NCBI GenBank assembly: GCA_947644695.1
Contig: CANSAJ010000003.1
Location: 8,424-72,423, forward strand
DNA: 64,000 nt
Reading direction: 5' to 3'
DNA from: an uncultured Bacillota bacterium
Lineage (GTDB): Bacteria; Bacillota_I; Bacilli_A; RF39; UBA660
In this document: in pieces, positions 3,990 to 59,230 of the stretch
How the letters are laid out: the number at the start of each line of letters is the position of its first letter
Numbering within the stretch: position 1 is the stretch's first letter
Notes under the pieces: generated by a model
Databases searched by the model: none
The model's input: the letters and a program-made list of their open reading frames with translations, nothing else
Told to the model about the DNA's origin: nothing
Position numbers and translations under genes: made by a program

Positions 3990-5874
3990 TCTAACTTTAA
4001 GAGCTTCTACAATTTATAATAATCGAGTAGAGAAAACTTTTCATTTAAAGTATAATGAATACTTTTCCCCCTCACACCACCAAGCATATCGTTCGGTACT
4101 TGGCGGTTTAATTTGTAATAATATGTACTTTTAAATAGTGGTCTAGTAAATTTACTAGACCTCTTTTATTTAATCTTTCTTTAGATATTGCTTCTTTTAG
4201 TACCCATGTATTTCCAATAAAATATAAACCTCTTCTACAATTTGCTGTCATAAAAGCATTGTAATGGTCTATTCCTAGTTTTCTTAAAGATGTATATCTT
4301 TTCTTGATTTTCTTCCATTGTTTCCATATGACTACTCGTATCTTTCTTCTAATTCTTGCATCTAATTTATCAAGAAGTACTTTCATATCTGCAATTCTAA
4401 AATAGTTAACCCATCCATATATTAAATATTTTAATTCTTCTAATCTTTGGTTTAATGATATTCCTCTTTTCCTAAGAAGAATTTGATTTAATTTATAGAT
4501 TAATTTCTTTACTGATTTAATATGTGGCTTAGGTCTCCATATATTTTGATTAATCTTTTTGTAAAATCCAAAGCCTAAATATTTAATATCTTTTGGTCTT
4601 GCCACTTTACTCTTTTCTACATTTATTCTTAGTCCTAATTTCTTAGTTATAAATGTACTTACACTTTCCATCACTCTATTCGCTGCTTTCTCACTTTTTA
4701 CCATGATTAAACAATCATCTGCATACCTTACAAAATTTAAACCTCTTGCTTCCAATTCTTTATCTAATTCATTTAACATAATATTAGATAACAATGGACT
4801 TAAGTTTCCTCCTTGTGGTGTTCCTTTATGTGTTTTCTGTACAACTCCATCTTCCATTACTCCACTTTGCAAAAACTTTCTTATTAATGATATTACATCA
4901 TTATCTTTGATTGTTCTATGTATAATTGCCATTAATTTATCTTGGTTTACCTCATCAAAGAAAGATTGCAAATCTATGTCTACTATCCAGTCGTACCCAT
5001 CGTTAAAACATTCAAGCGCTTTTATAACTGCCTGTTCACAACTTCTTCCTAGTCTAAATCCATAAGAATTATTTGAAAATTGTTCCTCATAAATAGGTGT
5101 TAATACTTCTACTATTGCTTGTTGTATTACTCTATCTATTACACATGGTATTCCTAGTTTTCTCATTTTTCCATCTTCTTTTGGTATATAGACTCTTCTT
5201 ACAGGAAGTGGCTTATATTTTCTATTTCTTATTAATGTAAATATTTCTTCTTTATGTTCTTTGATATATGAAAATATTTCTTCAGTAGTTACTCCATCTA
5301 TACCACTTGCTCCTTTATTTTTGTAAACTTGCTTATATGCTTTGTTTAAATTATCTTTGGAAAGTATTTTCTCTAAAAGTTCCATATCTGTTCCTCTCTT
5401 TCTATTATCGTACATAGATTAACGTCTTTTATAGGATTTATTCTGACTTTTAATCTATTCCAGTATTAGTAATTAGAACTACAAATTATTCAGTCCTTCC
5501 TAATTTCTTAGTACTACGACCTCTGCTGACTTCTCATAGTTAACCTTTTTCGAACACAGATTTTCTCGTACTCCTCGTCGTTTCCCTTTCTATGTCTATG
5601 AGACCTCCCGCGGTAAGACATATATCTTTCCTCAATTAGCCACTTATTTTACTGCATAAAGTTACGAGTATCTATTTGGACTTTAGTTTGTATTGCAACC
5701 TTATCCGTTTACACAGCCTTATAATAAGTTTCTGTTCGTTAGCCCTCGATTTTGTTTCGCACTTCCTTTAGCCCCAAGCCTCACGACTGATGCTTTGCGT
5801 TTCCCTAACACTTCGCTGATACCTACGCGTGTAGTGGACTTTCACCACCTAGATATATGCCATGCACGGCACAC
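3990..5874 (-). mobile_element. Group II intron (3' boundary approximate)
   Basis: Minus-strand sense begins GTGTGCCGTGCATGG... at 5874 (GUGYG 5' consensus), followed by domain-I-like sequence (GTGCGAAACAAAATCGAGGGCTAACGAACAG). RT/maturase ORF lies in domain IV. Directly after the ORF stop there is a domain-V-like hairpin CCGCCAAGTACCGAACGATATGCTTGGTGG (about 4075-4107) and a G-rich domain-VI-like tail. Confidence 0.85.
4108..5415 (-). CDS. Group II intron reverse transcriptase/maturase (intron-encoded protein)
   Basis: 435 aa; RT domains 0-7 including a YADD active-site motif (RYADDCLIM), a maturase X domain and a C-terminal basic region; N-terminus LLEKILSKDNLNKAYKQVYKNKGASGIDGVT is typical of LtrA-like IEPs. 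Confidence 0.95.
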   Translation of the reverse strand: MYDNRKRGTDMELLEKILSKDNLNKAYKQVYKNKGASGIDGVTTEEIFSYIKEHKEEIFTLIRNRKYKPLPVRRVYIPKEDGKMRKLGIPCVIDRVIQQAIVEVLTPIYEEQFSNNSYGFRLGRSCEQAVIKALECFNDGYDWIVDIDLQSFFDEVNQDKLMAIIHRTIKDNDVISLIRKFLQSGVMEDGVVQKTHKGTPQGGNLSPLLSNIMLNELDKELEARGLNFVRYADDCLIMVKSEKAANRVMESVSTFITKKLGLRINVEKSKVARPKDIKYLGFGFYKKINQNIWRPKPHIKSVKKLIYKLNQILLRKRGISLNQRLEELKYLIYGWVNYFRIADMKVLLDKLDARIRRKIRVVIWKQWKKIKKRYTSLRKLGIDHYNAFMTANCRRGLYFIGNTWVLKEAISKERLNKRGLVNLLDHYLKVHIITN

Positions 5875-5969
5875 AATAAAAAGATATTGATTTTTAGTCA
5901 CGGCTCATGCAAAACTAATATATCATAAATCCCCATAAATTCAAGGTTTTTTCACTATTAAAATTTTAT

Positions 5970-5992
5970 TTTGTTAGCAACGTGTTAGCAAC
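5970..5992. repeat. Putative attL core (23-bp direct repeat copy 1)
   Basis: Identical to 45759-45781; contains the internal duplication GTTAGCAAC x2. Confidence 0.55.
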
Positions 5993-6010
5993 AAACAAGC
6001 TTTAAAATTT

Positions 6011-6496
6011 ATGATTTGTAAATACTATAAAGTTAAAAAGAAAAATAATAAAAAAGAAAAGCGAATTTATTACTACTGTAATAAACAAAGAATAGAAATA
6101 AACTATAGCGAATGTAAAAATTGTTGCTATAAAGAATATAAAGAACAAAAGACTATCAGAAAACGCACTTACAAACTAGCTAAAAAAGAAAAAGAAAGAT
6201 TTAGTATAATTTATTCTAAATTAGATAAATGTTGCTTACATCCATTAAAAGAAGCACAAAAAAACGAAGTGTATGATGGGGCATATAGACAATTATCTAT
6301 TAAACATGGTATGGTGATTCCATTTTGTGATTTATGCCATAAAAGGTTTCATAAAGACAGATTCTTTGCTCTATATTATAAATCATTATTTCAAAAAGAA
6401 TTTGAAAACATCCATAGCCAAACTGAATTTCTAAGAATTTTCAAAAAGAATTATATATATTTATATGAAAAAGAAAAGAAAATGAAGGGAGGTTAA
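6011..6496 (+). CDS. Cys/Lys-rich hypothetical protein, possible zinc-ribbon (prophage moron)
   Basis: 161 aa with C-x11-C-x2-CC and C-x2-C-H-x3-H spacing; plus strand, opposite to the rest of the prophage; no obvious SD, so the start is uncertain. Confidence 0.4.
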   Translation: MICKYYKVKKKNNKKEKRIYYYCNKQRIEINYSECKNCCYKEYKEQKTIRKRTYKLAKKEKERFSIIYSKLDKCCLHPLKEAQKNEVYDGAYRQLSIKHGMVIPFCDLCHKRFHKDRFFALYYKSLFQKEFENIHSQTEFLRIFKKNYIYLYEKEKKMKGG

Positions 6497-25972: not shown

Positions 25973-26046
25973 TGGTTACGGGTGAAAGATTTGAACTTTC
26001 ATTAATTGCTGCTGAGACAATTGTGTTTCAATTACACTAACCCGTG
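25973..26046 (-). tRNA. tRNA-like gene (74 nt incl. CCA), anticodon loop CUCAGCA giving anticodon CAG; non-canonical
   Basis: Minus sense CACGGGT-TA-GTGT-AATTGAA-ACAC-A-ATTGT-CTCAGCA-GCAAT-TAAT-GAAAG-TTCAAAT-CTTTC-ACCCGTA-A-CCA. Conserved U8, A14, A21, U33 and a TTCAAAT T-loop are all present. There is a C1.A72 mismatch, a pyrimidine at position 37, and a class-I (short variable arm) structure despite a Leu-type anticodon. Confidence 0.5.
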
Positions 26047-42662: not shown

Positions 42663-42753
42663 TAATTGAAATTTTAAGTAAAGGAGTATAAAGTACTTTC
42701 ATTCGGGTATTGACTTTAATACATTTATATTATAGAATGTATATGTATTGAGC

Positions 42754-42778
42754 TTCGGTATCCCGTGTGGACCGAAGA
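42754..42778 (+). terminator. Rho-independent terminator after the repressor gene; left arm of the Abi-flanking inverted repeat
   Basis: CTTCGGTatcccgtgtggACCGAAG followed by ACTTTTTATATT. Confidence 0.55.
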
Positions 42779-42789
42779 CTTTTTATATT

Positions 42790-43749
42790 ATGAAAGATTT
42801 TAAAACAATAGATAATCAAATTGAACTTTTAAAAAATAGAGGATTAACTTTTAAAGATGAAGAAAAATCAAAAGATATTCTTATTAAAAATAATTATTAT
42901 AACATTATAAATGGGTACAAAGAACCATTTATAACCGATGGAACTAAGGATAATTTTATAACTAATACAACTTTTGAAGAAATATATGCACTATATATTT
43001 TTGATAAAAGAATAAAGGATGTTTTCTTAGAATATATTTTAAAAATTGAAAATAATTTAAGATCATTAATTGCTTACTATTTTTCTATGTTTCATGGTAA
43101 TGATAATTATTTAAAATTAGATAACTTTGATAATTTGGATAATATTTCAAATACACTTACAGAAACTAAAAGTAAAAAAATAAAATCAATTCAAGAATTA
43201 ATAGGAACTATACATAAAGAAATAGCTAAAACTATGACTTCTAAAGACTATATAAAACATTATATAATTGATTATGGTTTTGTACCACCATGGGTTTTAG
43301 TTAATATTCTTACATTTGGACAGTTAAGCAAATTTTTAGAATCAATGAAACAAAATGAAAGAATAAAAGTATCACAACACTTTAATATACTAGAAAATGA
43401 ATTAGTTCAATATACTAAATTACTGTCATATTTTAGAAACTTGTGTGCTCACGATGATAGAATTTTTAATGTCAAATTACCAAAATACTTATATATTCCT
43501 GATAATGAATTGCATATTCAATTAAATATTTCTAAAAAACAAGATATGTATTCTTCTGGTAAAAATGATTTATTTGCTTTGTTAATTACTTTAAAAATCA
43601 TGCTAAGTGAAGATGAATTTAATACTTTATATAACAAAATTTATGGAAGAATAAAAAGTTTAGAGCATAATTTATCTAGTATAAATATTAATAAAATACT
43701 AGAAAGAATGAATTTTCCTAGTAATTGGAGAGATATAAAAAAGTTCTAG
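42790..43749 (+). CDS. Abi_2 family (AbiD/AbiF-like) abortive-infection protein
   Basis: Start at M15 of the track ORF; the N-terminus MKDFKTIDNQIELLKNRGLTFKDEEKSKDILIKNNYYNIINGYKEPF matches the Abi_2 signature (...QIELLK.RGL.I.DE......L....YY.L.GY); about 320 aa as expected. Confidence 0.65.
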   Translation: MKDFKTIDNQIELLKNRGLTFKDEEKSKDILIKNNYYNIINGYKEPFITDGTKDNFITNTTFEEIYALYIFDKRIKDVFLEYILKIENNLRSLIAYYFSMFHGNDNYLKLDNFDNLDNISNTLTETKSKKIKSIQELIGTIHKEIAKTMTSKDYIKHYIIDYGFVPPWVLVNILTFGQLSKFLESMKQNERIKVSQHFNILENELVQYTKLLSYFRNLCAHDDRIFNVKLPKYLYIPDNELHIQLNISKKQDMYSSGKNDLFALLITLKIMLSEDEFNTLYNKIYGRIKSLEHNLSSININKILERMNFPSNWRDIKKF

Positions 43750-43768
43750 GTCCACACGGGATACCTAG
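43746..43768 (+). repeat. Right-arm hairpin of the Abi-flanking inverted repeat (GGTCCACACGGGATACC)
   Basis: CTAGGTccacacgggatACCTAG; its loop is the exact reverse complement of the loop of the 42754-42778 hairpin; the Abi stop codon TAG sits in its stem. Confidence 0.6.
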
Positions 43769-43857
43769 ACACTATCATTAATATTATGTAAAAATTTAGA
43801 AAAATAATACAAGAATAAGTACAGAAGTATCGTACTTTACTATGGTGAGGTGAAGAT

Positions 43858-44187
43858 ATGAATATTAAAAACTTATTATTGGAGGTTATTACTGATAAAG
43901 AACTATTAAATTATTATAACGCTACTGTTATATATGAAGATACTCCTACATCTGTTAGAGGCTGTGTATTCAATCATGATGGTGTGTATTTTATAATAAT
44001 TAACAAGAACTTATCATATTATAAAAGAAAAAAGACACTACTCCATGAATTATCTCATATTGAGTTAAGTCAGTTGTGTCAAAAAGAAAAAGATCTTTTT
44101 GCTTTTCACATAGACAAATATGAAGATGAAGCTAATAAATATTTAAAAGATTTAGAAAAAGAAATATATAATTTAGAAAAGAGGTAA
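43858..44187 (+). CDS. ImmA/IrrE-family metallopeptidase (repressor-cleaving antirepressor protease)
   Basis: 109 aa with HEXXH LLHELSHIEL; typical partner of an XRE repressor in prophage immunity regions. Confidence 0.65.
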   Translation: MNIKNLLLEVITDKELLNYYNATVIYEDTPTSVRGCVFNHDGVYFIIINKNLSYYKRKKTLLHELSHIELSQLCQKEKDLFAFHIDKYEDEANKYLKDLEKEIYNLEKR

Positions 44188-44191
44188 AACT

Positions 44192-44596
44192 TTGAGAATA
44201 ACTATAGGATATGATTTTGATAAAATGGAACCTATTAAAAATATAAAAAATATTACTATTAATGATCAAGAAAACGATATTTTAAAAAATATTATATCGA
44301 TTTTAAGTAATAATTATAATGAAAAAGATTTTAACGTTATTGCTGAAACTCGCAATTATACAACACTTAAATATAAAAATAATGATATTGCAAGAATAAA
44401 ATATACAGATAAAGCTAAATGGTTAAGTGTACTCATATTAGATAATAATTTAATAAGAAAATATGAAAATGATCCACTATTTAGTAAACAAAAAAATAAA
44501 AAGCAATTTCAATGGAAATCTGATTTTAATGAGAATAATATTAATAGTTATATTGAAATTTTAAACAAAGCATGCGAACAAATTGAAATACAATAA
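44192..44596 (+). CDS. Hypothetical protein (134 aa, TTG start)
   Basis: ORF between ImmA and int, followed by a GC-rich hairpin. Confidence 0.4.
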   Translation: MRITIGYDFDKMEPIKNIKNITINDQENDILKNIISILSNNYNEKDFNVIAETRNYTTLKYKNNDIARIKYTDKAKWLSVLILDNNLIRKYENDPLFSKQKNKKQFQWKSDFNENNINSYIEILNKACEQIEIQ

Positions 44597-44600
44597 AAAA

Positions 44601-44636
44601 AACTCCCCTACTATGCAGCAACATAGTAAGGGGCGG
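44601..44636. terminator. GC-rich hairpin (CTCCCCTACTATG...CATAGTAAGGGGCGGAG), bidirectional terminator-like
   Basis: About 11-bp stem in AT-rich surroundings, preceded by A7 (a T-run on the opposite strand). Confidence 0.45.
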
Positions 44637-44750
44637 AGTATATAATACTCCTTAAGAAAAATATCACTACACGAATAGGAAATTTTTCTATGTTTTAATT
44701 TTAGCATAGAATCAATTTCTTTTCAATAAAAGAAAGGAATGTGATTTACA

Positions 44751-45758
44751 ATGAAACGAGCAAATGGTATGGGCAGTGTATATAAACTTTCAGGAAAAAG
44801 AAGAAAACCCTACGCTGCCTCAGTTACAATAAATGGAAAGAGAGTTGTACTAGCTACCTTTCCAAAACCTAAACTAGCAATTGAATATTTAAGTAATTAC
44901 ATATGTAATCCATACGATATAGATTATTCAAAATATACAACACTTCAATTATTTGAAGAATGGTTTCCAACTTATAATAAATCCGATAGTTCAAAGAATA
45001 ATTATAAAAATGCTTTCTATCAACATTCTAAACCAGTACATAATAAAGCATTTATTGAATTGAGAAAAAAAGATATACAATATTTAGTTGATAATAGCAA
45101 TCTCAAATACACCGGAAGATCATACATAAAAATAGTCTTTTCAGCACTTTTTGAATACGCAAAGGAAAAAGAATTAGGAGTCAAAGAAAATTACGCTAGA
45201 GGCGTCAAATTAGGCGATAAGAACATATCTGTTATGCACAAATCTCTTACAGACAAAGATTTTGAAACTGTTTGTAATAATTCCGACAAAGAATTTGTTG
45301 ACATAATTATGGTTTACTTATATACCGGAGCACGGCCAAGTGAACTTTTAAAAATTACTAAAAAAAATGTTTTTTTAGAAGAAGATTATATGGTTGGCGG
45401 AATTAAAACAAAAGCAAGTAAAGACAGAATAATGCCTATTCATCCAAAAATTAAGAAAATAATTGAAAAACATTATCATAAAAATTCAATATACCTTTTT
45501 GAAAATATAAAAGGAGAACAAATAACATATAAAACTTTTGTTAAGAAATTTAAAGAAGCATTAAATACTTTAAATTTAGAAGAAGAATATAAACCACATG
45601 ATACAAGACATACATTCTCTACTAGAGCAAAATTATCTGGAATGGATGATTTATGTAGAAAATTAATTATGGGGCACGCTATTAATGATTTAACCGACAA
45701 TATTTATACTCATATACCTAAAGAAAAATTAATTGAGGAGGTGAAAAAATTAAAGTAA
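44751..45758 (+). CDS. int: Tyrosine site-specific recombinase (phage integrase)
   Basis: 335 aa; C-terminal catalytic region HDTRHTFSTRAKLSG ... LIMGHAINDLTDNIYTHIP (R, H-x-x-R, Y); the stop abuts the 23-bp att repeat. Confidence 0.85.
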   Translation: MKRANGMGSVYKLSGKRRKPYAASVTINGKRVVLATFPKPKLAIEYLSNYICNPYDIDYSKYTTLQLFEEWFPTYNKSDSSKNNYKNAFYQHSKPVHNKAFIELRKKDIQYLVDNSNLKYTGRSYIKIVFSALFEYAKEKELGVKENYARGVKLGDKNISVMHKSLTDKDFETVCNNSDKEFVDIIMVYLYTGARPSELLKITKKNVFLEEDYMVGGIKTKASKDRIMPIHPKIKKIIEKHYHKNSIYLFENIKGEQITYKTFVKKFKEALNTLNLEEEYKPHDTRHTFSTRAKLSGMDDLCRKLIMGHAINDLTDNIYTHIPKEKLIEEVKKLK

Positions 45759-45781
45759 TTTGTTAGCAACGTGTTAGCAAC
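45759..45781. repeat. Putative attR core (23-bp direct repeat copy 2)
   Basis: Identical to 5970-5992. Confidence 0.55.
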
Positions 45782-45894
45782 GTCTAAAATTTTACACGAT
45801 TTTACACGATTTTCGATATAAATGTTCGTGTATATAAATTTGACAGCAAAATAAAACAAGCCCTGTATTTATAAGGCTTGTACAAGTTTTAACT

Positions 45895-45940
45895 TGGTGG
45901 ACCGTTAGGGATTCGAACCCTAGACCCATCGATTTTTAGT
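45895..45940 (-). pseudogene. Orphan tRNA 3' fragment (T-arm + acceptor 3' strand + CCA; no 5' half)
   Basis: Minus sense ...TAGGGTTCGAATCCCTAACGGTCCACCA: a T-stem-loop GGTTCGAATCC and the acceptor 3' strand plus CCA are present, but no matching 5' acceptor strand (GGACCGT) exists nearby. This pattern is typical of a duplicated att core of a tRNA-integrating element. Confidence 0.5.
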
Positions 45941-51903: not shown

Positions 51904-53868
51904 TTATCTATTTTTTTCAATAAATTCTTTTATATAATCTGCTGTTTGTTCAACTCCAAGTTTATCAACATTTATCATAAGATCATAGTTTTCTAAATTA
52001 TACCATTCTCTATTAGTATAATATTTATAATGTTTTTCTCTGGATTTATTAATACTTTTTATTTCTTTTAGTGCATTAGCTTTTTCTAGTCCGTAATATT
52101 TTACAGCTCGGTTGATTTTTGATTTATCATCACTATATAAAAATATTTTTAATGTATATTTATTATCTTTTAAAATATAATCAGCACATCTACCTACTAT
52201 TACAAATGATTCTTTTTGTGCTAATTTTTTTATTACATTACTTTCAGCGATGAATAAGCGGTCATCATTTTCACTTTTTCTTTTTGTTTCATCTCTTTCA
52301 GTTATATATTTCTGTGATAATCCAGATTCTTTAGCTGATAATGATATTATTTCTTTGTCATAAAAGTTAATTCCTAAGGAATCTGCTAATAGTTTGCCTA
52401 CATATCTTCCTCCTGATGCATATTCACGTGAAATAGTTATTATTATATGTTTTCCATTATATTTATTTTTACATGTTGGTTCTTCTATTAAGTTTAGGTC
52501 TTTATTTTTACCTAAGTTTTTGTATTCTGAACCTACTAGGAAGATAGCTATTATAAAGCATAAAATATCTGAAATACATCCTGCATATAAAACTCCATAT
52601 ATTCCTTTTTTCAAAACAATACATAGAAATAATGATATAGGTATTAATAATATTATTTGTCTTATAAATGATAAAGCTGTTGCTTTTTTTACTTTTCCTA
52701 AAGATTGTATAAGTATGCTTCCAGTCATTTCAAATGCATTTAAAGCAGTTAGTAAAAGAAATGAGTGACACATTAATTCTGCAAATTCCATGAATAATTC
52801 GTAATTAGGGTCTGTACTAGATATAAATATTCCTGCTAGGTTTTTAGGAAATAAGACGAATATTAAATTAAATATAATTCCTACTGTTAAATTTATTATT
52901 AAGACTTTTTTTATAGTTTCTTTAACTCTTATTTCATTTCCTGAGCCATAGTTAAAACCTACAATTGGTTGTGCGCCTATTGATATACCCAGAACAGTAG
53001 ATATAAATAGACTATTTATTTTAGATATAACTCCATAAACAGATAATGGTATATCTTCTCCAAATTTAGATAAAGCTCCATATTTTGTCATCATATTATT
53101 CATAAATACAAATAGTACTAATACTGTTCCTTGTGTTATGAAAGAAGATAATCCTAAAGATAATATTTTAAAGATATTTTTATCTAGTTTAAAAGATTTT
53201 TTATTTAATGTAATAGATTTGAATTTTTTTAAATATAATAATGCTATTATAAATGATACTATTTGTCCTATGATAGTTGCTAATGCTCCACCTTTTACTC
53301 CTAATTTAAATATAAAAATGAATATAGGGTCTAAAATTATGTTTATAATTGCGCCTATTATTAACATTATCATTGAGTATTTTGGAGAACCGTCAGCGCG
53401 TATAATGTTAGAAAGTGAAGAATATATAATCATAAATGGAGCACCTATAATAATAATTCTTCCATAATCTAAGGCATATTTATAAACATTGTCAGTGCAT
53501 CCAAATAGGTATACTAATTTTGGTAAAAATATGTACGATGTTACACTAAGTAATATTGATATTATGAACGTAATAATTAATGATTGGCCTATACTTTTTG
53601 AAGCTTCGTCTTTTTTACCTTCTCCTAATTTTAAAGACATATTTGATGCTGCACCTGTTCCAACTAAACTTGCGAAAGCATTAAATATTATTATTAGTGG
53701 AAATATAACATTTGTTGAACCATTTCCTAAAGTTCCTACACCTTTTCCTATGAATATTTGATCAACTATATTATATATTGAATTTATTAACATACTAATT
53801 ACACATGGTATAGAAAATGATATTAATAATTTATTAATGTTTTCTTTTCCTAAATCTAATTTTTTCAT
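51904..53868 (-). CDS. MATE efflux transporter fused to a C-terminal cytidylate-kinase-like domain
   Basis: First ~450 aa is a 12-TM MATE; the C-terminal ~200 aa (IIITISREYASGGRYVGKLLADSLGINFYDKEII...) is a cytidylate-kinase-like P-loop domain in the same frame. Confidence 0.65.
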   Translation of the reverse strand: MKKLDLGKENINKLLISFSIPCVISMLINSIYNIVDQIFIGKGVGTLGNGSTNVIFPLIIIFNAFASLVGTGAASNMSLKLGEGKKDEASKSIGQSLIITFIISILLSVTSYIFLPKLVYLFGCTDNVYKYALDYGRIIIIGAPFMIIYSSLSNIIRADGSPKYSMIMLIIGAIINIILDPIFIFIFKLGVKGGALATIIGQIVSFIIALLYLKKFKSITLNKKSFKLDKNIFKILSLGLSSFITQGTVLVLFVFMNNMMTKYGALSKFGEDIPLSVYGVISKINSLFISTVLGISIGAQPIVGFNYGSGNEIRVKETIKKVLIINLTVGIIFNLIFVLFPKNLAGIFISSTDPNYELFMEFAELMCHSFLLLTALNAFEMTGSILIQSLGKVKKATALSFIRQIILLIPISLFLCIVLKKGIYGVLYAGCISDILCFIIAIFLVGSEYKNLGKNKDLNLIEEPTCKNKYNGKHIIITISREYASGGRYVGKLLADSLGINFYDKEIISLSAKESGLSQKYITERDETKRKSENDDRLFIAESNVIKKLAQKESFVIVGRCADYILKDNKYTLKIFLYSDDKSKINRAVKYYGLEKANALKEIKSINKSREKHYKYYTNREWYNLENYDLMINVDKLGVEQTADYIKEFIEKNR

Positions 53869-53959: not shown

Positions 53960-54371
53960 TTAGCTATTGGTTTTTGTAATTATTGGTTTTCCATCTTTAT
54001 CTATTATTGGTGTTATAGCAAGTCCGTATCCACTTTTTATTAATAGATAATTAACTCCTGTTTCCATGTCTACTAATATTTGTTTTACACCGTCTTCTTT
54101 TAAAGAACTTCCTTCTTTTGAAACTGATATAAATCGGTTATATTTATTACTCATCTTCCTTCTCCTTTTCATTAGTTAATAATTCTAATGCTTTTTTATA
54201 TAAAGGGTCTAATTCACAGCCACAGTTTCCACATTCAGCATCTGCTTCTTTTATCGCAGATATTAATTCATCTGTATTTTCTTTTCCATCTAACCATGCT
54301 TGTGATGGTGTAGCGATTAAATCCCAACCTGAAGATACAAATTTCTCCATGATTTCTTTTAATTCATTCAT
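53960..54371 (-). CDS. Two small hypothetical proteins (53960..54172 and 54147..54371)
   Basis: 70 and 74 aa, overlapping; the second has a CGNCGC motif. Confidence 0.35.
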
Positions 54372-54463
54372 TTAATTTAAGTTCCTTTCTAAATAAATAT
54401 ATTTATATTATATCACATACTAACTTTCTTATATTTATTTATTACAAAAAATGTAAACTTTTA

Positions 54464-55129
54464 TTAGAATTCATTTTCTAATATATTATTTAGAAATTCA
54501 GTAATATCAACCTCTTTATCTTTAAAAATAACTTTGTTAGGACTCTCATTATTTATTAATAAAATTCCTTTAAGTATATCGTATTCTATATAACAGCAAT
54601 CATTTATTTTTAAAGTTTTATCTTTTAATTTTATTTTAGGTATATCAAAAATCATTGCGAGTTCGCTTCCTATATTTTTTTCTTTTACTCTAAATAAGCG
54701 ACCACAATATAAGCATAAATGAGTACTATGCGGAGTATAAGCGAATTTTCCATTGTCAGAATGATAACGTTTACAATGGTTACACTTTACTAATTCTAAA
54801 GGTAAATCATTTAATTTTGATAGTAATATTCCACCTAAATCTTTATAAGTTAAAATACAATCATCATATTCTAGAGTTCCATTAAATATAGAGTCATTTA
54901 TTATTATTTTAGGTATAACATTTTCTATTATATTTTCATATATAATTTTTATACTTTTTATATTATTTTCTTTAATATTTAATTTATTATCGTATATTTC
55001 TTTATCTTTACAAAGACATTTATTTAGTTTATTTCCTAGTTTGTCATAAGCAAAAGACTTATGAACTGTACAATAATATTTGGTTATTCCTTGTCTTGAT
55101 TTTCCAATATATTCTATATTACATTTCAT
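54464..55129 (-). CDS. Cys-rich hypothetical protein (221 aa)
   Basis: C-x2-C / CNHCKRYH / CLYCG motifs suggest a zinc-binding fold. Confidence 0.4.
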   Translation of the reverse strand: MKCNIEYIGKSRQGITKYYCTVHKSFAYDKLGNKLNKCLCKDKEIYDNKLNIKENNIKSIKIIYENIIENVIPKIIINDSIFNGTLEYDDCILTYKDLGGILLSKLNDLPLELVKCNHCKRYHSDNGKFAYTPHSTHLCLYCGRLFRVKEKNIGSELAMIFDIPKIKLKDKTLKINDCCYIEYDILKGILLINNESPNKVIFKDKEVDITEFLNNILENEF

Positions 55130-55176
55130 TATTTTACCTCCATTTTATAAAACATATTACTTAGAATATAATTAAA

Positions 55177-55476
55177 CTAATACTTTTTAATTAATTTAGA
55201 TATTAATGCTTTACATGTGTTCATTTGAATGCAAGCATAAAAATTATTGGTTACTTCTTTTCCTTTTCCTATAGTTGTTGCGTTATTTGCATCTTCTTCT
55301 GTTTCCCATAATACAAAATCAGTCCAAGTGTCTCCGTCTTTATAGTGTTCCCAGGAAATAAATCCTGCAGCTTTAGAAATAATTTCATCATGTAATTTTT
55401 GAGTTAATTCTATAAATTGTTCTTCGTTTATATCTTTCTTAAGTTTATAGGAAAATATCCATGCTGTTTTATTCAT
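55177..55476 (-). CDS. Small hypothetical protein (99 aa; possibly a stress-responsive alpha/beta-barrel/ABM-like fold)
   Basis: Size and composition only. Confidence 0.3.
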   Translation of the reverse strand: MNKTAWIFSYKLKKDINEEQFIELTQKLHDEIISKAAGFISWEHYKDGDTWTDFVLWETEEDANNATTIGKGKEVTNNFYACIQMNTCKALISKLIKKY

Positions 55477-55478
55477 TA

Positions 55479-56486
55479 TTAATCCTCCTTTTTATTTATG
55501 TAATATTTATCAAATATTTTTGTTATTTTATCTAAATCAAAACCTTGTTTTATCATTTTTTCTTTTCTTTTATTATACATTTGTATAAATATTTTTTCTT
55601 TTTCTTCTTTAACAGCATAGTGTACTTTTCTATGACATAGTGGACACACAGCTATAATATTAAATAGACTATCAAGTTTTGTATGTATAAAATCTTTTTG
55701 TGCATTTAAAGGAATGATGTGGTGACATTCTAAATATTGGTGTTCTCCTGATGCACATGTAAATGTTTTATGGCTACAATCAATTTCACAATTATAATGA
55801 GCTAATTCCATTCTAGTTGCTTTTAATTTAGGGTCTGTTTTTACTCTTCCCTTTTTACTACTTTTGTTAGGTTTATTTTCATAAGTAAAGACTTGTTTTT
55901 CTATTTCTTCTATTTCTTTTTTGCTGTATCCTTTTATTAAACCACGACTTATTTCTTCAAATTGTTCTTGTTCCTCTTCAATTACTTCTAATTCTTCTAT
56001 TTTATTTGATGTTTCATTTCTGTGTACTTTAACAATTTCATTAATTTTTTTATCGTTAATTTTTTTTAAGAAAAAATCAGCTATATGTTCTTCCATTGGA
56101 TATAAATATCCCATTTTAGCTAATCCAGCTTTTGTGAAAGGATTTTTATCAAGATCTATTTTTGACATATATTTGCTTTTATAATCAATGTAATGAAATG
56201 ATTCTGATAATTCGTGATATTCTATATCTACTTTAAAGCCTATTTGGTTCCATTTTCCTTCTAAAGAAGCAGGTATAACAGATTCATAACCATTACTTTT
56301 TGCTATTCCTATTGCCTTAATAAATCCTTTTTTATTACAAAATATTATGTCGCCTTTTTTTACATTTTCAACATTAGACCAGTGATCACAAGATGATCCT
56401 TTTGCATTATATTTAGGTGCGTATATAAAATTACCTTCTAACTCTTCTTTAAAAGACTTACCCTGATTAACAAACCAAAAATTCAT
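55479..56486 (-). CDS. PUA/EVE-like N-terminal domain + C-terminal HNH nuclease (candidate modification-dependent type IV-like restriction endonuclease)
   Basis: C-terminus HYNCEIDCSHK ... EHQYLECHHIIPL ... NIIAVCPLCHRKVH is a full HNH motif; N-terminus FWFVNQGKSF ... VKKGDIIFCNKKGFIKAIGIAKS resembles EVE/PUA-like modified-base reader domains. Confidence 0.5.
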   Translation of the reverse strand: MNFWFVNQGKSFKEELEGNFIYAPKYNAKGSSCDHWSNVENVKKGDIIFCNKKGFIKAIGIAKSNGYESVIPASLEGKWNQIGFKVDIEYHELSESFHYIDYKSKYMSKIDLDKNPFTKAGLAKMGYLYPMEEHIADFFLKKINDKKINEIVKVHRNETSNKIEELEVIEEEQEQFEEISRGLIKGYSKKEIEEIEKQVFTYENKPNKSSKKGRVKTDPKLKATRMELAHYNCEIDCSHKTFTCASGEHQYLECHHIIPLNAQKDFIHTKLDSLFNIIAVCPLCHRKVHYAVKEEKEKIFIQMYNKRKEKMIKQGFDLDKITKIFDKYYINKKED

Positions 56487-56890
56487 AATTTCATCTCCTT
56501 AATGTATTTAGCTAAAGGAATATCAGCTGGAGCTAAGTCATAATTTAATAGTTCATTTAAATCTATATATTTATACTCTGAATGATCATGCAAATTAAAT
56601 TCACCTGAAATATATTTACATTTATATAATTTTAAATCTACTATTTTTGTAGAATATTCACATATACTATTTGTTATAAATTTTTCTGCTTTAATTTTTA
56701 ATTCAAATTCTTCTTTTATTTCTCTTTCGATGGCATTAGTTTCAGATTCTCCAAGTTCTACTTTACCTCCTGGAAATTCCCATTTACCTAATACTTCTTC
56801 ATCTCCTGTTTTGCGTTTTGCTAGTAAGACTTTTTCTTCTTTAATTATTAAAGCTGCGACTACAATTACTCTTTTCTTCATGCGTTCCAC
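56483..56890 (-). CDS. NUDIX hydrolase
   Basis: Nudix box GKWEFPGGKVELGESETNAIEREIKEEF; ATGA overlap with the downstream EVE-HNH gene. Confidence 0.8.
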   Translation of the reverse strand: MERMKKRVIVVAALIIKEEKVLLAKRKTGDEEVLGKWEFPGGKVELGESETNAIEREIKEEFELKIKAEKFITNSICEYSTKIVDLKLYKCKYISGEFNLHDHSEYKYIDLNELLNYDLAPADIPLAKYIKEMKL

Positions 56891-56993
56891 CTAAATAAAT
56901 TGTATCAAACTTTTAGTTAAAAGTCTGCGGTTTTAAATTAAAGTTATTATATTTTAATTATTCCTAGAATTAATTAAAAATTTTTAAAATTAT

Positions 56994-57536
56994 CTATATC
57001 CCAAATTCTTTTGCGTATTCAACTATACCTTCTATTTCTAACTCATTTAATTTTATAGCCATAAAATTTTCTGGTGATACTTTAAAGGGTGCTTTTATGT
57101 TATATGTTATAGATGGAAGATAATTAAACTTTGAATAATATTTTTGATCTCCTAAAACAATGGAGTAATGATAATTTAAATTTCTTGCTATTTCATGACC
57201 TCTTTCAATTAAATTTTTTCCTATTCCTTTTCTTTGGTATTCGGGTAATACCGCGAGTGGAGCTAAACAAATTTCTTCATATTTTCCTATCTTTATTTTT
57301 GTAAATAAAATATATCCCACTATTTTATTATCTAAAACTGCGACTAATGATAAATCTGGAATAAAATTTTCACTTTTTCTTAATGCTACGACTAAATCTT
57401 GTTCGTTTCCATCGCTATGTTCGGCTGTTTCAAAAGCGACTTTTACGACATTATATACTTCGTTAAAATCTTTCTTTGTTTCTTTTCTTATTTCTAGCAC
57501 TGTATTATCCTCCAACTCTTTAATATTTATTTTCAT
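56994..57536 (-). CDS. GNAT family N-acetyltransferase
   Basis: QRKGIGKNLIERGHEIARNLNY acetyl-CoA binding motif. Confidence 0.7.
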   Translation of the reverse strand: MKINIKELEDNTVLEIRKETKKDFNEVYNVVKVAFETAEHSDGNEQDLVVALRKSENFIPDLSLVAVLDNKIVGYILFTKIKIGKYEEICLAPLAVLPEYQRKGIGKNLIERGHEIARNLNYHYSIVLGDQKYYSKFNYLPSITYNIKAPFKVSPENFMAIKLNELEIEGIVEYAKEFGI

Positions 57537-57592
57537 GTAGTCTCTACTAATAAAAATTTAAAAATAATCTTGCGTATATATTTTAATTTAAA

Positions 57593-58012
57593 TTAGATTA
57601 TATCAAAGCTTTCTGTTTTTAAGTCACAATAATATCTACCACTAGCAGCAGTAAATTTTAAAACACAATAGTCTGGGTCGGTTACACCTTTTTTATAAAA
57701 TATTGTATCTCCTTTTTTCCAAATCATATTTTTGGTTTCTTGATCTGTTAATACTTCCATTTTACCTTTTAACATAACACCAATATATTTTATTAATCCT
57801 TTGTGATAAAAATAAATACTAGCATTACTATTATTTTTATATTGACTAACTCTCATAGATGAAGTATTAGTAGAAAAATAAAATTCTTTTAGTCCAATTC
57901 TTTTTCTTGGTTTTAGCATTGCTTTTACATTAGGATAATTTTCATCATCTATAGAACATATAAAACTGACTTTTTGTTTATCAATAAATTTTTCTATTTT
58001 CTTTAAGTCCAT
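57593..58012 (-). CDS. Pyridoxamine 5'-phosphate oxidase-like FMN-binding split-barrel protein
   Basis: 139 aa with the small split-barrel family pattern. Confidence 0.5.
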   Translation of the reverse strand: MDLKKIEKFIDKQKVSFICSIDDENYPNVKAMLKPRKRIGLKEFYFSTNTSSMRVSQYKNNSNASIYFYHKGLIKYIGVMLKGKMEVLTDQETKNMIWKKGDTIFYKKGVTDPDYCVLKFTAASGRYYCDLKTESFDII

Positions 58013-58050: not shown

Positions 58051-58775
58051 TTAATTACTTTTATAATCAATATTAGCTAGTCTTGCTTTTTTGCACAAAT
58101 TTTTTGTCTCTATTTTATATTGTTTTCCATCTTTTATTGTATATGTTCCACATTGTCTAAACTCAAAATTAACATTTTTTCTCATACACTGCTTTCTAAT
58201 ATCTAATACCCAATCATAGTTAAATACTCTAGCCTTTATATCAGATTCTCCACCTACTACAACTAGTTCAATATCATCAAGATATTTTTCTATATCTATT
58301 CTTTCTAATAACGGCTGTGCAGTTATACATTTGTGTTTTACTGGTAAGTCTTTAAATATTGATAATTTAGAGTCTGCATTTTTTGATTTTCAATGGTACA
58401 ACATACAACTACATTATCATATCCATTATTCCAATCATCTGGAATACATTTTAAAAATCTATCAATTCTTTTTGTTAGAAATATAAAAGTACAGTCTTGT
58501 CTTTCTTTTATCATTTTCCAACATTCATTTCTCCATTCATCCGCCTCTTCAATAAAAAAATCAGATGAAAAGCATAAATAGACAATTCCTGATTTCATTT
58601 TATAATTGCCTTTTTTTGTTTTCATTATTGGTTTTTCAAAATCTTTTGTTTTTATAATTTCATTTGTATTTATATTTCTTTTTGTGTCACCTTTATGAAT
58701 ATAGCAATGTAAACAACCATCACTACATTTTTTACAACCTCTCCATGGATTCCACATTGCCATAATTTTCACCAC
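58051..58775 (-). pseudogene. DUF5131 (phage Gp37/Gp68 family) gene, frameshifted at an A6 run near 58385
   Basis: N-terminus MWNPWRGCKKCSDGCLHCY is the family signature. After the track ORF stops (...ENQKMQTLNYQYLKTYQ*) the -1 frame continues as ENQKNADSKLSIFKDLPVKHKCITAQP ... VVVGGESD ... FEFRQCGTY to 58051. Confidence 0.6.
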
Positions 58776-58777
58776 TT

Positions 58778-59230
58778 CTAAAATCTTGATTTTTCATAAT
58801 TATATGGAATACTTGTTCCAACTACTACATCTTCTATTTTTTCAATGATTAACCAATCGTCCATGTTTCCTTGATGATCAAAATCTAGAGGTGTTATTTC
58901 TTCTACATCTTTAAATTCAACTAAACATAAACATTTCTTGTGCCATCTTTCTTTTTGTTTGTTAGTTAGTTGTAATTTACTATTATTGTCTTCGATTGTT
59001 TTTGTTATTTCTTCATCACTTAATTTAACATAGTTTTGAACATCTGTTACTACAGCTTTTGCTGTTATTTTTTTACTTCCTTTTTCCATAAAATAAAGTT
59101 TTTCATCTTTAAATACTCGACTATGTGGTATTTTTCTTCCCGAGGCACATCTTATAATCATTGTTTTATTACCTTCTAAAATTTTATTTAATACTTTTTC
59201 TTTATTGTCACAATATACTAAATGAACCAT
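58778..59230 (-). CDS. ASCH (PUA-like) domain protein
   Basis: 150 aa; KTMIIRCASGRKIPHSRVFKDEKLYF ASCH-like beta-barrel pattern; 4-nt overlap with the DUF5131 gene start. Confidence 0.5.
   Translation of the reverse strand: MVHLVYCDNKEKVLNKILEGNKTMIIRCASGRKIPHSRVFKDEKLYFMEKGSKKITAKAVVTDVQNYVKLSDEEITKTIEDNNSKLQLTNKQKERWHKKCLCLVEFKDVEEITPLDFDHQGNMDDWLIIEKIEDVVVGTSIPYNYEKSRF

Follow-up and report, generated by a model that had tools for sequence, protein, structure and literature searches.

Modification-dependent nucleases are usually described as single proteins for which no protective partner is needed, and the question raised by this locus is what a NUDIX hydrolase might do for a predicted nuclease of this kind. 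The window (the whole stretch of DNA that was analysed, 64,000 nucleotides from an uncultured Bacillota bacterium, contig CANSAJ010000003.1) contains both open reading frames where the initial annotation had placed them on the minus strand, the NUDIX frame at 56483-56890 and a 335-aa frame at 55479-56486. The ATGA overlap that it had described is also present at 56483-56486, with the NUDIX stop TGA at 56485-56483 and the nuclease start ATG at 56486-56484. The features of the locus, all on the minus strand, are:

56887..56892, minus strand: putative Shine-Dalgarno-like AGGTGG, 5 nt 5' of the NUDIX ATG, by reading of the sequence
56483..56881, minus strand: NUDIX hydrolase gene, 132 aa, NudG/MutT2-like and of the PADLOC PDC-S07 family; the mechanically called frame runs to a GTG at 56890
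56495..56500, minus strand: AAGGAG ribosome-binding site of the nuclease gene, within the last NUDIX codons (K-E-M), 8 nt upstream of the ATG
56483..56486, minus strand: ATGA, overlap of NUDIX stop and nuclease start (potential translational coupling)
56052..56486, minus strand: EVE (PUA-superfamily) domain, predicted modified-base reader, residues 1-145 (phmmer, AlphaFold, Foldseek)
55842..56051, minus strand: inter-domain linker, residues 146-215, with a long helix at 146-180 (DSSP on the model)
55479..55841, minus strand: HNH nuclease domain, residues 216-335 and the stop codon (Pfam, PADLOC, phmmer)

As judged from the sequence, the NUDIX protein likely starts at the ATG at 56881, giving 132 aa, and not at the GTG at 56890, because AGGTGG lies 5 nt upstream of this ATG and the homologs start with MKK.I.VVAA. 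At homolog loci the NUDIX stop either overlaps the nuclease start (ATGA or TAATG) or is separated from it by a gap of at most 9 nt, and AAGGAG (or ATGGAG) within the last NUDIX codons is kept at the junction in most of them. Because both the overlap or short gap and the AAGGAG recur in this way, sequence comparison tells us that the tight junction is not due to chance. Scans of 54000-57700 for promoters and terminators gave matches no more numerous than in shuffled sequence of this 25% GC DNA, and no compositional shift was seen at the locus.

The nature of the nuclease was approached through its N-terminal domain, which the initial annotation had likened to modified-base readers on account of the peptide VKKGDIIF...IKAIGIAKS, found here at residues 42-64. 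A fold that does not bind nucleic acids was to count against that reading, and what we find instead is an EVE/PUA-superfamily fold. Residues 1-145 match VcaM4I (PDB ID 6yex, residues 1-148) with an E-value of 2e-18 in phmmer, the AlphaFold model of the 335-aa protein has a mean pLDDT of 89 (88-97 across residues 1-145), and the best Foldseek match of this model is again VcaM4I (E 2e-17), followed by EcoKMcrA, stand-alone EVE proteins, ScoMcrA, YTH domains and THYN1 bound to 5mC DNA. Similar to VcaM4I, TspA15I and CmeDI, the protein thus joins an N-terminal EVE reader through a long linker helix to a C-terminal HNH domain. Previous work on VcaM4I found that its EVE domain flips a single 5mC or 5hmC nucleotide into a pocket formed by P24, W82 and Y130, with the T11 hydroxyl and E15 making the Watson-Crick-edge contacts (PMC7897488). 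This stacking triad corresponds to P24, W79 and Y127 in our protein, which are kept in 46/46, 45/46 and 46/46 family members, respectively, and T11 and E15 align with S11 and E15. However, identity to VcaM4I is only 17-18% over the whole Foldseek alignment, the phmmer match is confined to residues 1-145, and the wedge residue Q128 of VcaM4I aligns with M125, in a column occupied by Gln (18), Met (17) or Leu (9) across the family; with Met or Leu in this position, intercalation could still be possible. The hosts differ too, those of the VcaM4I group being Proteobacteria and that of the window belonging to a low-GC Bacillota lineage.

The C-terminal HNH motif is complete, as had been proposed, with a Pfam HNH match above the curated cutoff (E 4e-5) and further matches to PADLOC mREase_IV (E 8e-9) and EcoKMcrA (PDB ID 6ghc, phmmer E 1e-6). 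Residues C233, E234, H255, H256, D272, N276, C281, C284, H285 and H289 are invariant across 46 sequences, in agreement with the catalytic His/Asn and zinc-binding Cys of a beta-beta-alpha-metal HNH nuclease. EcoKMcrA, ScoMcrA and TagI share this type of HNH domain (the 6ghc match, and fold matches to 5zmm) together with the reader-plus-HNH logic, although their readers differ from the EVE domain of our protein: EcoKMcrA uses a distinct N-terminal domain, and ScoMcrA and TagI use SRA or sulfur-binding domains. Pfam finds no NTPase domain in the EVE-HNH enzyme. In VcaM4I the linker helix contributes to autoinhibition (PMC7897488), and within the nuclease of our family the linker shows the lowest conservation (44% mean pairwise identity). 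The 5hmC phage T4gt is restricted by TspA15I, VcaM4I and CmeDI, and enzymes of this group, when produced in E. coli with no partner, were not notably toxic (PMC6765204). This speaks against a need for a protective partner, although E. coli has a NudG of its own. By its alignments and its model the 335-aa protein is clearly a VcaM4I relative, and is predicted to cut DNA with modified cytosine.

The partner matches Pfam NUDIX (E 8e-14) and, over its full length (residues 3-132 of 135), the PADLOC candidate PDC-S07 (E 6.6e-44), which the NUDIX members from S. aureus, Bacillus, Priestia and Latilactobacillus match at E 1e-46 to 1e-55. The best NCBIfam model is NudG (NF007834), with 104.1 bits against an equivalog cutoff of 156, so that by these profiles the protein is closest to NudG yet is not a member of that equivalog. 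Its best PDB matches are E. coli Orf135 (2rrk, E 1e-19) and then the SauUSI-linked NUDIX of S. aureus (5x1x, E 3e-19), with MutT2 (5zrc, E 2.5e-12) and the RNA pyrophosphohydrolase BdRppH (3ees, E 2e-11) among the other relatives, and its Foldseek matches include MutT2 solved with 5mdCTP. The Nudix box is catalytically intact (G-x5-E-x7-R-E-I-x-E-E), only the penultimate box glycine being replaced, by Glu here and by Lys in the S. aureus NUDIX. Invariant across the family are the Nudix-box glutamates, WEF(P/A)GGK and the AD of the C-terminal PAD motif; Orf135/NudG and MutT2 have the same glutamates, WEF(P/A)GGK and a PAD(I/V) motif, but are housekeeping enzymes with no described defence context. 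These two, from E. coli and mycobacteria, are the closest characterised relatives and prefer 5-methyl-dCTP, and MutT2 also digests dCTP.

Is the pairing more than a local accident? Absence of conserved adjacency was to speak against it, and we find the NUDIX gene directly upstream of EVE-HNH in 18/22 homolog loci, within at least nine different flanking contexts, and again beside EVE-HNH homologs of only 31-37% identity carried by plasmids of Bacillus and Priestia; these homologs add four further NUDIX-linked arrangements. At least 27 of the 60 EVE-bearing plasmids listed carry a NUDIX gene within 2.2 kb. In one locus (L005), and independently as P0181 (16 member sequences), the two are joined in frame as a single NUDIX-EVE-HNH protein, a fusion limited to this one cluster. 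Representatives of EVE-HNH of about 455 aa and EVE proteins of about 270 aa were considered as additional NUDIX fusions and set aside, being unmatched by our local NUDIX profile. At loci L094-L097 the NUDIX remains where the nuclease is deleted, and the other neighbours tested in the window (a 99-aa ORF, a 221-aa ORF and a GNAT gene at 56994-57536) are not conserved with the pair. The NUDIX is also the better conserved partner, with a mean identity of 66.9% versus 56.1% for the nuclease and the higher value in 128/136 pairs, and the EVE sensor (50% identity) evolves fastest together with the linker. Two classes of EVE pocket can be told apart (Q8/S-T11/E15/Y22 versus L8/Y-F11/Q15/W22); among 17 paired loci no NUDIX column co-varies with them, and so we see no sign there of matched enzyme and reader specificities.

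The papers on the VcaM4I group (PMC7897488, PMC6765204) make no mention of Nudix or MutT, in contrast to the translational coupling in the window. Nevertheless the pairing, which the initial annotation had regarded as no textbook arrangement, is not unprecedented, and is already known in kind from SauUSI. A MutT/NUDIX gene upstream of this type IV enzyme was reported in 2011 and its function left ‘to be examined’ (PMC3141236). That gene (SAUSA300_2432, PDB ID 5x1x) belongs to the same NUDIX family (PDC-S07 E 3e-55 versus 7e-44 here) and likewise lies upstream of a type IV enzyme that depends on 5mC/5hmC, 1 nt separating the two genes; the enzyme itself is unrelated, an ATP-dependent protein of ~950 aa made of a PLD nuclease, an SF2 helicase and DUF3427, whereas the EVE-HNH protein has 335 aa and would be NTP-independent. 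We found PDC-S07 NUDIX genes preceding SauUSI itself (S. aureus) as well as the PLD-helicase-DUF3427 enzymes of Lactobacillaceae that resemble it, and a recent preprint gives PDC-S07 as co-localised with RM type IV in 23/23 S. suis occurrences (10.1101/2025.08.29.672906). PDC-S07 is thus linked to a type IV enzyme there as here, and is catalogued as a single-gene candidate, whereas in our loci it forms half of a conserved pair; the passages on PDC-S07 covered by the analysis mention neither a mechanism nor a NUDIX. In our literature search neither the NUDIX/type IV pairing nor the PDC-S07 family came with a functional study, and a NUDIX in PMC11706625, considered as a relevant case, was dropped as an unrelated AICE gene. 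What is new is that a single NUDIX clade is found with nucleases of at least two unrelated architectures, both of them sensors of modified cytosine. A further type of fusion, NUDIX-X-HNH, has a region X that shows no EVE likeness by hhalign and no sequence match in PDB or in the Pfam copy searched; the Foldseek alignment of X-HNH to ScoMcrA extends over more than 300 columns, which suggests that X may be an SRA-like reader.

Considering what is seen of the reader fold and pocket, the HNH and Nudix catalytic motifs, both intact, and the conservation of the linkage, fusion included, our analysis upholds the proposal of a candidate modification-dependent two-gene defence module, with a VcaM4I-like EVE-HNH nuclease and a conserved NUDIX neighbour. 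That the NUDIX acts on 5-modified dCTP and protects the host can only be inferred, and we give about even chances to the following reading, in which a type IV enzyme of the VcaM4I/TspA15I kind is accompanied by a coupled NUDIX that clears 5-modified dCTP and so guards against self-restriction. The EVE domain would flip a 5-substituted cytosine (5mC or 5hmC) of foreign DNA into the hydrophobic P24/W79/Y127 pocket, S11 and E15 would read its Watson-Crick edge, and recognition would license cutting by the C-terminal HNH domain. The NUDIX, as a NudG/MutT2-like pyrophosphohydrolase, would convert 5-methyl-dCTP, and probably also 5-hydroxymethyl-dCTP, to the monophosphate. In this way, nucleotides that stem from restricted or salvaged DNA and carry the modification would be kept from re-incorporation into the host chromosome, which would otherwise come under attack by the nuclease of the host itself.

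The NUDIX-less loci also speak in favour of this reading. In both of those with enough flank (L016 and L026), a gene for a MazG-like pyrophosphatase lies 2-3 kb upstream; its closest named solved relatives are DCTPP1/RS21-C6, the mammalian 5-methyl-dCTP sanitisers. These enzymes have the function that we propose for the NUDIX, although their all-alpha MazG fold is unrelated and no such gene occurs in the window. A homologous MazG-like gene is found repeatedly next to genes for EVE-HNH and SauUSI-like enzymes; since a DUF2075/SLFN helicase accompanies it in every case, it may be part of the helicase module and not a partner of the EVE-HNH gene. With more hesitation, as a possible but doubtful generalisation, we speculate that type IV restriction in salvage-dependent Bacillota, in EVE-HNH, SauUSI and NUDIX-X-HNH alike, may be a two-component system with ‘metabolic immunity’, where a dedicated modified-dCTP sanitiser, NUDIX (NudG/MutT2-like) or DCTPP1-like MazG interchangeably, takes the place of the methyltransferase of classical restriction-modification. 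The sanitiser would keep 5mC and 5hmC nucleotides from restricted or scavenged DNA out of the chromosome, and the nuclease would never see ‘self’ as modified. The shared NUDIX clade, its 5-methyl-dCTP-preferring relatives and the DCTPP1-like enzyme at NUDIX-less loci together make for a cheaply testable hypothesis on how cells avoid self-restriction through nucleotide salvage, and on the NUDIX of SauUSI, a puzzle since 2011. If true, it would bring a principle of immunity into type IV restriction and explain the defence candidate PDC-S07, with relevance to reagents for 5mC/5hmC mapping and to transformation barriers in Gram-positive bacteria.

Several other roles for the NUDIX have to be set against protection of the host. 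It might itself be an anti-phage effector that destroys the modified precursor pool of the phage (e.g. hm-dCTP of hmC phages), leaving the phage starved or forced onto unmodified dCTP while the nuclease attacks whatever modified DNA remains. Such a role would fit the listing of the family in PADLOC as a stand-alone candidate, the retention of the NUDIX at the same site after nuclease loss, the hydrolysis of modified dCTP by its relatives, and the fusion of the same clade to other defence-type modules (HEPN_AbiU2, NOV_C and an SLFN helicase). We consider it unlikely nonetheless: a small constitutive enzyme would have to prevail over the nucleotide flux that the phage induces, dCTP is also digested by relatives such as MutT2 and high activity would therefore harm the host, and the linkage is specific to nucleases that sense modified cytosine and not to defence islands generally. 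Alternatively, free modified nucleotides might occupy the reader pocket and competitively blunt recognition of modified DNA, with the NUDIX acting to remove them. Crystals of the reader domain of CMoRE, a type IV enzyme, contain free 5hm-dCTP in the base pocket (PMC12923530), EVE of VcaM4I accommodates one flipped nucleotide, and both fusion and tight coupling would set the hydrolase beside the reader. However, this idea is entirely inferential, and 5hm-dCTP left cleavage of ordinary DNA by CMoRE unaltered (PMC12923530). A nudix deletion was moreover obtained in S. aureus and lacks the transformable phenotype of the sauUSI deletion (PMC3312211), and together these points make the idea improbable in our estimation. 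The viability of that deletion also argues against a strict antidote role of the NUDIX under laboratory conditions, which bears on protection of the host as well.

The initial annotation had suggested a nucleotide- or cap-processing partner, of which the profile scores favour the former and speak against the latter. Action on RNA 5' ends or caps, RppH-like and directed at phage or host transcripts, would be in keeping with BdRppH among the PDB relatives, a weak match to the YtkD model and weak RppH-model matches (E 2e-7 to 2e-4), but the RppH models reach only 21-31 bits against cutoffs of 116-259, the best of them 29-31, versus 104 for NudG. The closest relatives are moreover dNTP/CTP enzymes, and an RNA substrate would leave unexplained why the linkage is exclusively to DNA nucleases with a sensor for modified cytosine, so that we give this role a very small chance. 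Smaller still, and already disfavoured, is the chance that the NUDIX is a housekeeping MutT-like hitch-hiker functionally untied to the nuclease. The family is indeed far larger than that of EVE-HNH (more than 2,500 versus 60 matches), and the S. aureus nudix deletion shows no sauUSI-like restriction phenotype (PMC3312211); against this, the linkage holds across at least nine flanking contexts, six gene arrangements and an in-frame fusion, and spans two unrelated nuclease architectures in different Bacillota families. A variant suggested in 2011, in which the NUDIX removes pyrophosphate or nucleotide products of the SauUSI ATPase, cannot explain the EVE-HNH pair, because EVE-HNH has no NTPase domain.

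Lastly, the island setting described in the initial annotation holds in part. The integrase (44751-45758) and a genuine tRNA 3' fragment (45895-45940) are present, the latter unlike the only tRNA gene of the window (tRNA-Leu, 25973-26046), but the NUDIX/EVE-HNH module lies ~9.5 kb away and outside the integrated element. Between the two are ABC-transporter, two-component, epimerase and MatE genes.

The two genes of the module lie on the minus strand with an ATGA overlap, as the initial annotation had described them, and are given here with the two ORFs that follow:

56483-56890, minus: NUDIX ORF as called mechanically from GTG 56890
55479-56486, minus: nuclease ORF, 335 aa
56483-56486, minus: ATGA common to the NUDIX stop and the nuclease start
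56495-56500, minus: AAGGAG ribosome-binding site of the nuclease, within the final NUDIX codons
55177-55476, minus: 99-aa ABM-like ORF with its own AGGAGG, starting 2 nt past the nuclease stop
54464-55129, minus: 221-aa Cys-rich ORF after the 99-aa ORF

We prefer ATG 56881 as the NUDIX start, giving 132 aa, because AGGTGG stands 5 nt before it and homologs open with MKK.I.VVAA. Pfam recognized the NUDIX domain (E 8e-14) and, above cutoff, the HNH domain (E 4e-5), with no Pfam match in nuclease residues 1-215. The 99-aa and 221-aa ORFs are probably co-transcribed with the module in the window; none of the other homolog loci has either of them.

Sequence comparison and predicted structure together give good support to the nuclease being a reader-HNH type IV enzyme, since it matches VcaM4I in sequence and fold, keeps the reader pocket, has an invariant HNH and matches a PADLOC model. 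The N-terminal 145 residues align with residues 1-148 of PDB 6yex (E 2e-18), which is VcaM4I, an EVE-HNH modification-dependent restriction endonuclease characterized by biochemistry and structure (PMC7897488); residues 217-301 correspond to the 6ghc HNH domain (E 1e-6), and the C-terminus matches the PADLOC type IV REase model (E 8e-9). The AlphaFold model, computed from 46 homologs, reaches a mean pLDDT of 89 (88-97 in the N-terminal domain) and shows residues 146-180 as a long helix. Its top Foldseek match in the PDB was VcaM4I (E 2e-17) and then EcoKMcrA, followed by the stand-alone EVE proteins MJECL36, PH1033, Rpa0253, Atu2648 and the P. putida protein 2g2x, and after these by ScoMcrA, YTH domains and THYN1 bound to 5mC DNA, in that order. 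In VcaM4I the EVE domain takes up flipped 5mC or 5hmC in a P24/W82/Y130 pocket, with T11 and E15 reading the Watson-Crick edge and Q128 acting as intercalating wedge (PMC7897488). We found this stacking triad kept in the family alignment as P24 (46/46), W79 (45/46) and Y127 (46/46), and the window nuclease has S11 and E15 at the T11/E15 positions, whereas the wedge Q128 is replaced by M125. The proposed EVE/PUA-like reader is thus borne out by the 6yex and Foldseek matches, as is the complete C-terminal HNH by Pfam, 6ghc and its invariant Cys, His and Asn residues. With this nuclease an already known family gains a new member; for two VcaM4I relatives in it, TspA15I and CmeDI, restriction of the 5hmC phage T4gt is on record (PMC6765204). 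Within this family the EVE pocket has two classes, with positions 8, 11, 15 and 22 switching together (alignment A1; window 56421-56465, minus): Q8/S-T11/E15/Y22, which includes the window protein and shares Q8, E15 and the residue-11 hydroxyl with VcaM4I, and L8/Y-F11/Q15/W22. Judging from the alignment, E15-to-Q, at the acceptor of the cytosine N4 hydrogen bond, might signal another base specificity. Several EVE-HNH cluster representatives of ~455 aa (P0216, P0229, P0232, P0234, P0236, P0243, P0251; L054 5602-6975) carry a ~135-aa N-terminal extension, which is not a NUDIX.

A scan of genome and metagenome collections yielded 22 loci with a full-length nuclease homolog (43-67% identity); the identical nuclease occurs in metagenome contigs only, and the nearest named relatives come from MAGs of uncultured Bacillales and Bacilli. 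The suggested NUDIX-HNH adjacency proved to be conserved: a NUDIX ortholog (60-80% identity) was detected by tblastn directly upstream on the same strand in 17/22 loci, and for L017, where 52 nt of upstream sequence were available, these encode a NUDIX C-terminus (...LAKYVKELK*). At L006 the NUDIX is reduced to a 34-codon remnant, and in 3/22 (L016, L025, L026) tblastn found no NUDIX upstream. We conclude that NUDIX and nuclease move as a two-gene cassette, because their junctions are kept (ATGA or TAATG overlap, or a gap of at most 9 nt, with AAGGAG conserved) while the flanking genes vary in at least nine ways, and the window neighbors tested (the 99-aa ABM-like ORF, the 221-aa zinc-finger ORF and a GNAT) are not conserved beside it. 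At L005 the two are fused in frame (...LAEFVVNE-NRN-YWFVNLGK...), and the same 449-aa NUDIX-EVE-HNH fusion was found in another source as cluster P0181, with 16 member sequences. Across the 17 paired loci mean pairwise identity is 66.9% for the NUDIX versus 56.1% for the nuclease, the NUDIX being higher in 128/136 pairs; within the nuclease the HNH (70.6%) exceeds the EVE sensor (50%) and linker (44%), so that sensor and linker evolve faster. A gut Bacilli/Mollicutes lineage has the cassette at one fixed chromosomal site, ordered DUF2130-NUDIX-EVE-HNH-SWIM protein (the SWIM-finger protein being 345 aa; compare L090-L093), and L094-L097 (~5001-6443) have cleanly lost the nuclease and kept the NUDIX with its last few codons altered. 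Two adjoining ORFs with SPPY-motif methyltransferase signatures were also noted just upstream of the cassette at L020 (3828-5508, opposite strand).

The linkage extends to more distant enzymes. EVE-HNH homologs with 31-37% identity in the EVE domain occur on Bacillus cereus-group and Priestia plasmids, and in at least 27 of the 60 plasmid records listed a same-family NUDIX lies within 2.2 kb, which represents few independent events since these plasmids are closely related. Four more arrangements are nevertheless seen there: EVE-HNH then NUDIX (L098), NUDIX, zeta toxin, EVE-HNH (L099, L104), NUDIX, gap, EVE-HNH (L107) and divergent head-to-head (L102). The zeta-toxin family gene, just upstream of EVE-HNH on B. 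thuringiensis/B. mycoides plasmids (L099 3318-4064, L104 4850-5596, L106 2687-3433), has no PADLOC match at these loci. SauUSI follows 1 nt after a same-family NUDIX in S. aureus; over the residues compared, this NUDIX has the sequence of PDB 5x1x, which ranks second among the PDB matches of the window NUDIX. On Latilactobacillus and Lactiplantibacillus plasmids a NUDIX precedes ~960-aa PLDc_2 + ResIII + Helicase_C + DUF3427 proteins of SauUSI architecture. Here the NUDIX family is the same although the nuclease is unrelated to the window EVE-HNH; SauUSI and the VcaM4I group have the ligand 5mC/5hmC in common, not nuclease chemistry. All these NUDIX proteins match the PADLOC phage-defense candidate PDC-S07 (E 1e-44 to 1e-55).

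Contrary to the initial view of the pairing as non-textbook, a NUDIX beside a type IV enzyme has been on record since 2011, when Xu et al. linked a conserved MutT/NUDIX gene to at least 60 SauUSI-like enzymes and guessed that it degrades pyrophosphate from ATP hydrolysis, its function 'to be examined' (PMC3141236). For the window pair this idea is ruled out because the EVE-HNH enzyme is NTP-independent. A 2025 preprint found PDC-S07 co-localized with RM type IV in 23/23 cases in S. suis. Our literature search returned neither a functional study of a NUDIX/type IV pairing nor an account of NUDIX/EVE-HNH pairs; the word 'neighbor' is absent from the VcaM4I structure paper (PMC7897488), and Nudix and MutT are unmentioned there and in the screen paper (PMC6765204), where the neighborhood analysis dealt with methyltransferases. 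NUDIX-type IV linkage is already recorded and never explained; new are the conserved, coupled, once-fused NUDIX/EVE-HNH cassette and its generalization across nuclease architectures, which yields a testable hypothesis on the role of the NUDIX. The original observation is confirmed and its interpretation supported.

The window NUDIX has an intact Nudix box and shares with E. coli Orf135/NudG the WEF(P/A)GGK motif, one conserved histidine and a C-terminal PAD(I/V) motif; Orf135 E33 and D118, located in the first and last of these motifs, have been implicated in substrate recognition. NudG is also the best NCBIfam model of the window NUDIX, but the score of 104 bits stays below the cutoff of 156, so we regard the protein as a NudG relative, not an equivalog. 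In the PDB it is closest to Orf135, 5x1x, other MutT-like proteins, mycobacterial MutT2 and a Bacteroides 'CTP pyrophosphohydrolase', and Foldseek with a sister NUDIX domain ranked the MutT2 structures with CMP, dCTP and 5mdCTP first. Polymerase incorporates 5-methyl-dCTP and 5-hm-dCTP as well as it does dCTP, and the likely source of 5-methyl-dCTP in cells is degraded methylated DNA (PMC10742078). By analogy with these MutT2/NudG-like relatives, and given the common ligand of SauUSI and the VcaM4I group, we propose that the NUDIX would hydrolyze 5-modified dCTP, and favor a role in host protection from self-restriction. Modified dCMP would be set free by restriction and salvage; once re-phosphorylated, it could be built into the host chromosome and turn the chromosome into a substrate of its own nuclease; an upstream, translationally coupled sanitizer would prevent this.

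Convergent support comes from a 106-109-aa MazG-like NTP pyrophosphatase, to which DCTPP1/RS21-C6 are the nearest named proteins of solved structure (E 1e-18). The enzyme recurs by these nucleases; of the NUDIX-less loci, the two whose flanks are long enough, L016 and L026, have it 2-3 kb upstream. It is always paired with a DUF2075/SLFN helicase (SLFN-g3), sometimes with an N-terminal GIY-YIG domain, that has weak PADLOC matches only (PDC-S14, PifA, QatA), and the pair recurs beside EVE-HNH and SauUSI-like genes (L016 2815-4850; L026 3781-5990; L024 7042-8921; L019 1314-1532; L021 2426-2614; L099 7520-9459; L105 7316-8333; L106 5413-7570; L107 4912-7449). The MazG-like gene may belong to the helicase module rather than to the nuclease, and the two may form a second 'pyrophosphatase plus nuclease/helicase' module.

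A strict antidote role is argued against by the NUDIX deletion mutant of S. aureus Newman that Monk et al. obtained in 2012, which was without the transformable phenotype of a sauUSI deletion (PMC3312211). We found no co-variation of NUDIX and EVE pocket in the 17 paired loci, and E. coli, a host with a NudG of its own, tolerates VcaM4I-type enzymes without a partner (PMC6765204). With the same activity the NUDIX could instead be offensive, starving phages of modified precursors, which fits both the single-gene listing of PDC-S07 and the loci that keep only the NUDIX (L094-L097). It could also clear free modified nucleotides that might fill the reader pocket of the nuclease, in line with the binding of free 5hm-dCTP by the CMoRE reader (PMC12923530). 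The nucleotide-processing half of the partner role first suggested agrees with NudG as best NCBIfam model; the cap-processing half is the less likely one, a function in RNA 5'-end processing having weak RppH similarity as its sole support. That the NUDIX merely hitch-hikes with the nuclease is disfavored by the conserved linkage and the fusion.

The NUDIX clade has further fusions: NUDIX-X-HNH proteins of 418-430 aa (P0188-P0192, P0196; up to 141 member sequences), NUDIX-X alone of ~265 aa (P0201-P0210, one member named Candidatus Saccharibacteria), a NOV_C-containing form of ~460 aa (P0199, P0200, P0202, P0205, P0208), and HEPN_AbiU2-NUDIX and NUDIX-SLFN helicase (P0194 and P0198 among the fusion representatives). 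Region X is PF26348 in precomputed annotation, with the motif SLVL...YDD.W..DG.L.YTGMG..GDQ, and alignment of the X-HNH portion with ScoMcrA over >300 columns in Foldseek suggests that X may be an SRA-like reader.

GC is ~25%, with no shift at the module locus. Other features of the window are:

42748-43749: Abi_2 gene
44751-45758: tyrosine integrase
45895-45940, minus: 3' fragment of a tRNA, ending CCA
51904-53868, minus: 654-aa MatE efflux and cytidylate-kinase-like fusion (Cytidylate_kin2, E 5e-46)

The first three, spread over 42748-45940, mark the end of an integrated element. The tRNA fragment, taken initially as an island boundary next to the module, is genuine and unlike the only tRNA gene of the window (tRNA-Leu, 25973-26046), but the module does not adjoin the element, ~9.5 kb of ABC-transporter, two-component, epimerase and MatE genes lying between. 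At 58338-59230 (minus), the 145-aa DUF5131 ORF matches positions 9-150 of a 243-position profile and is probably truncated, and the adjoining 150-aa ORF has a weak ASCH match (E 0.036). The MatE/Cytidylate_kin2 fusion is an unusual combination.
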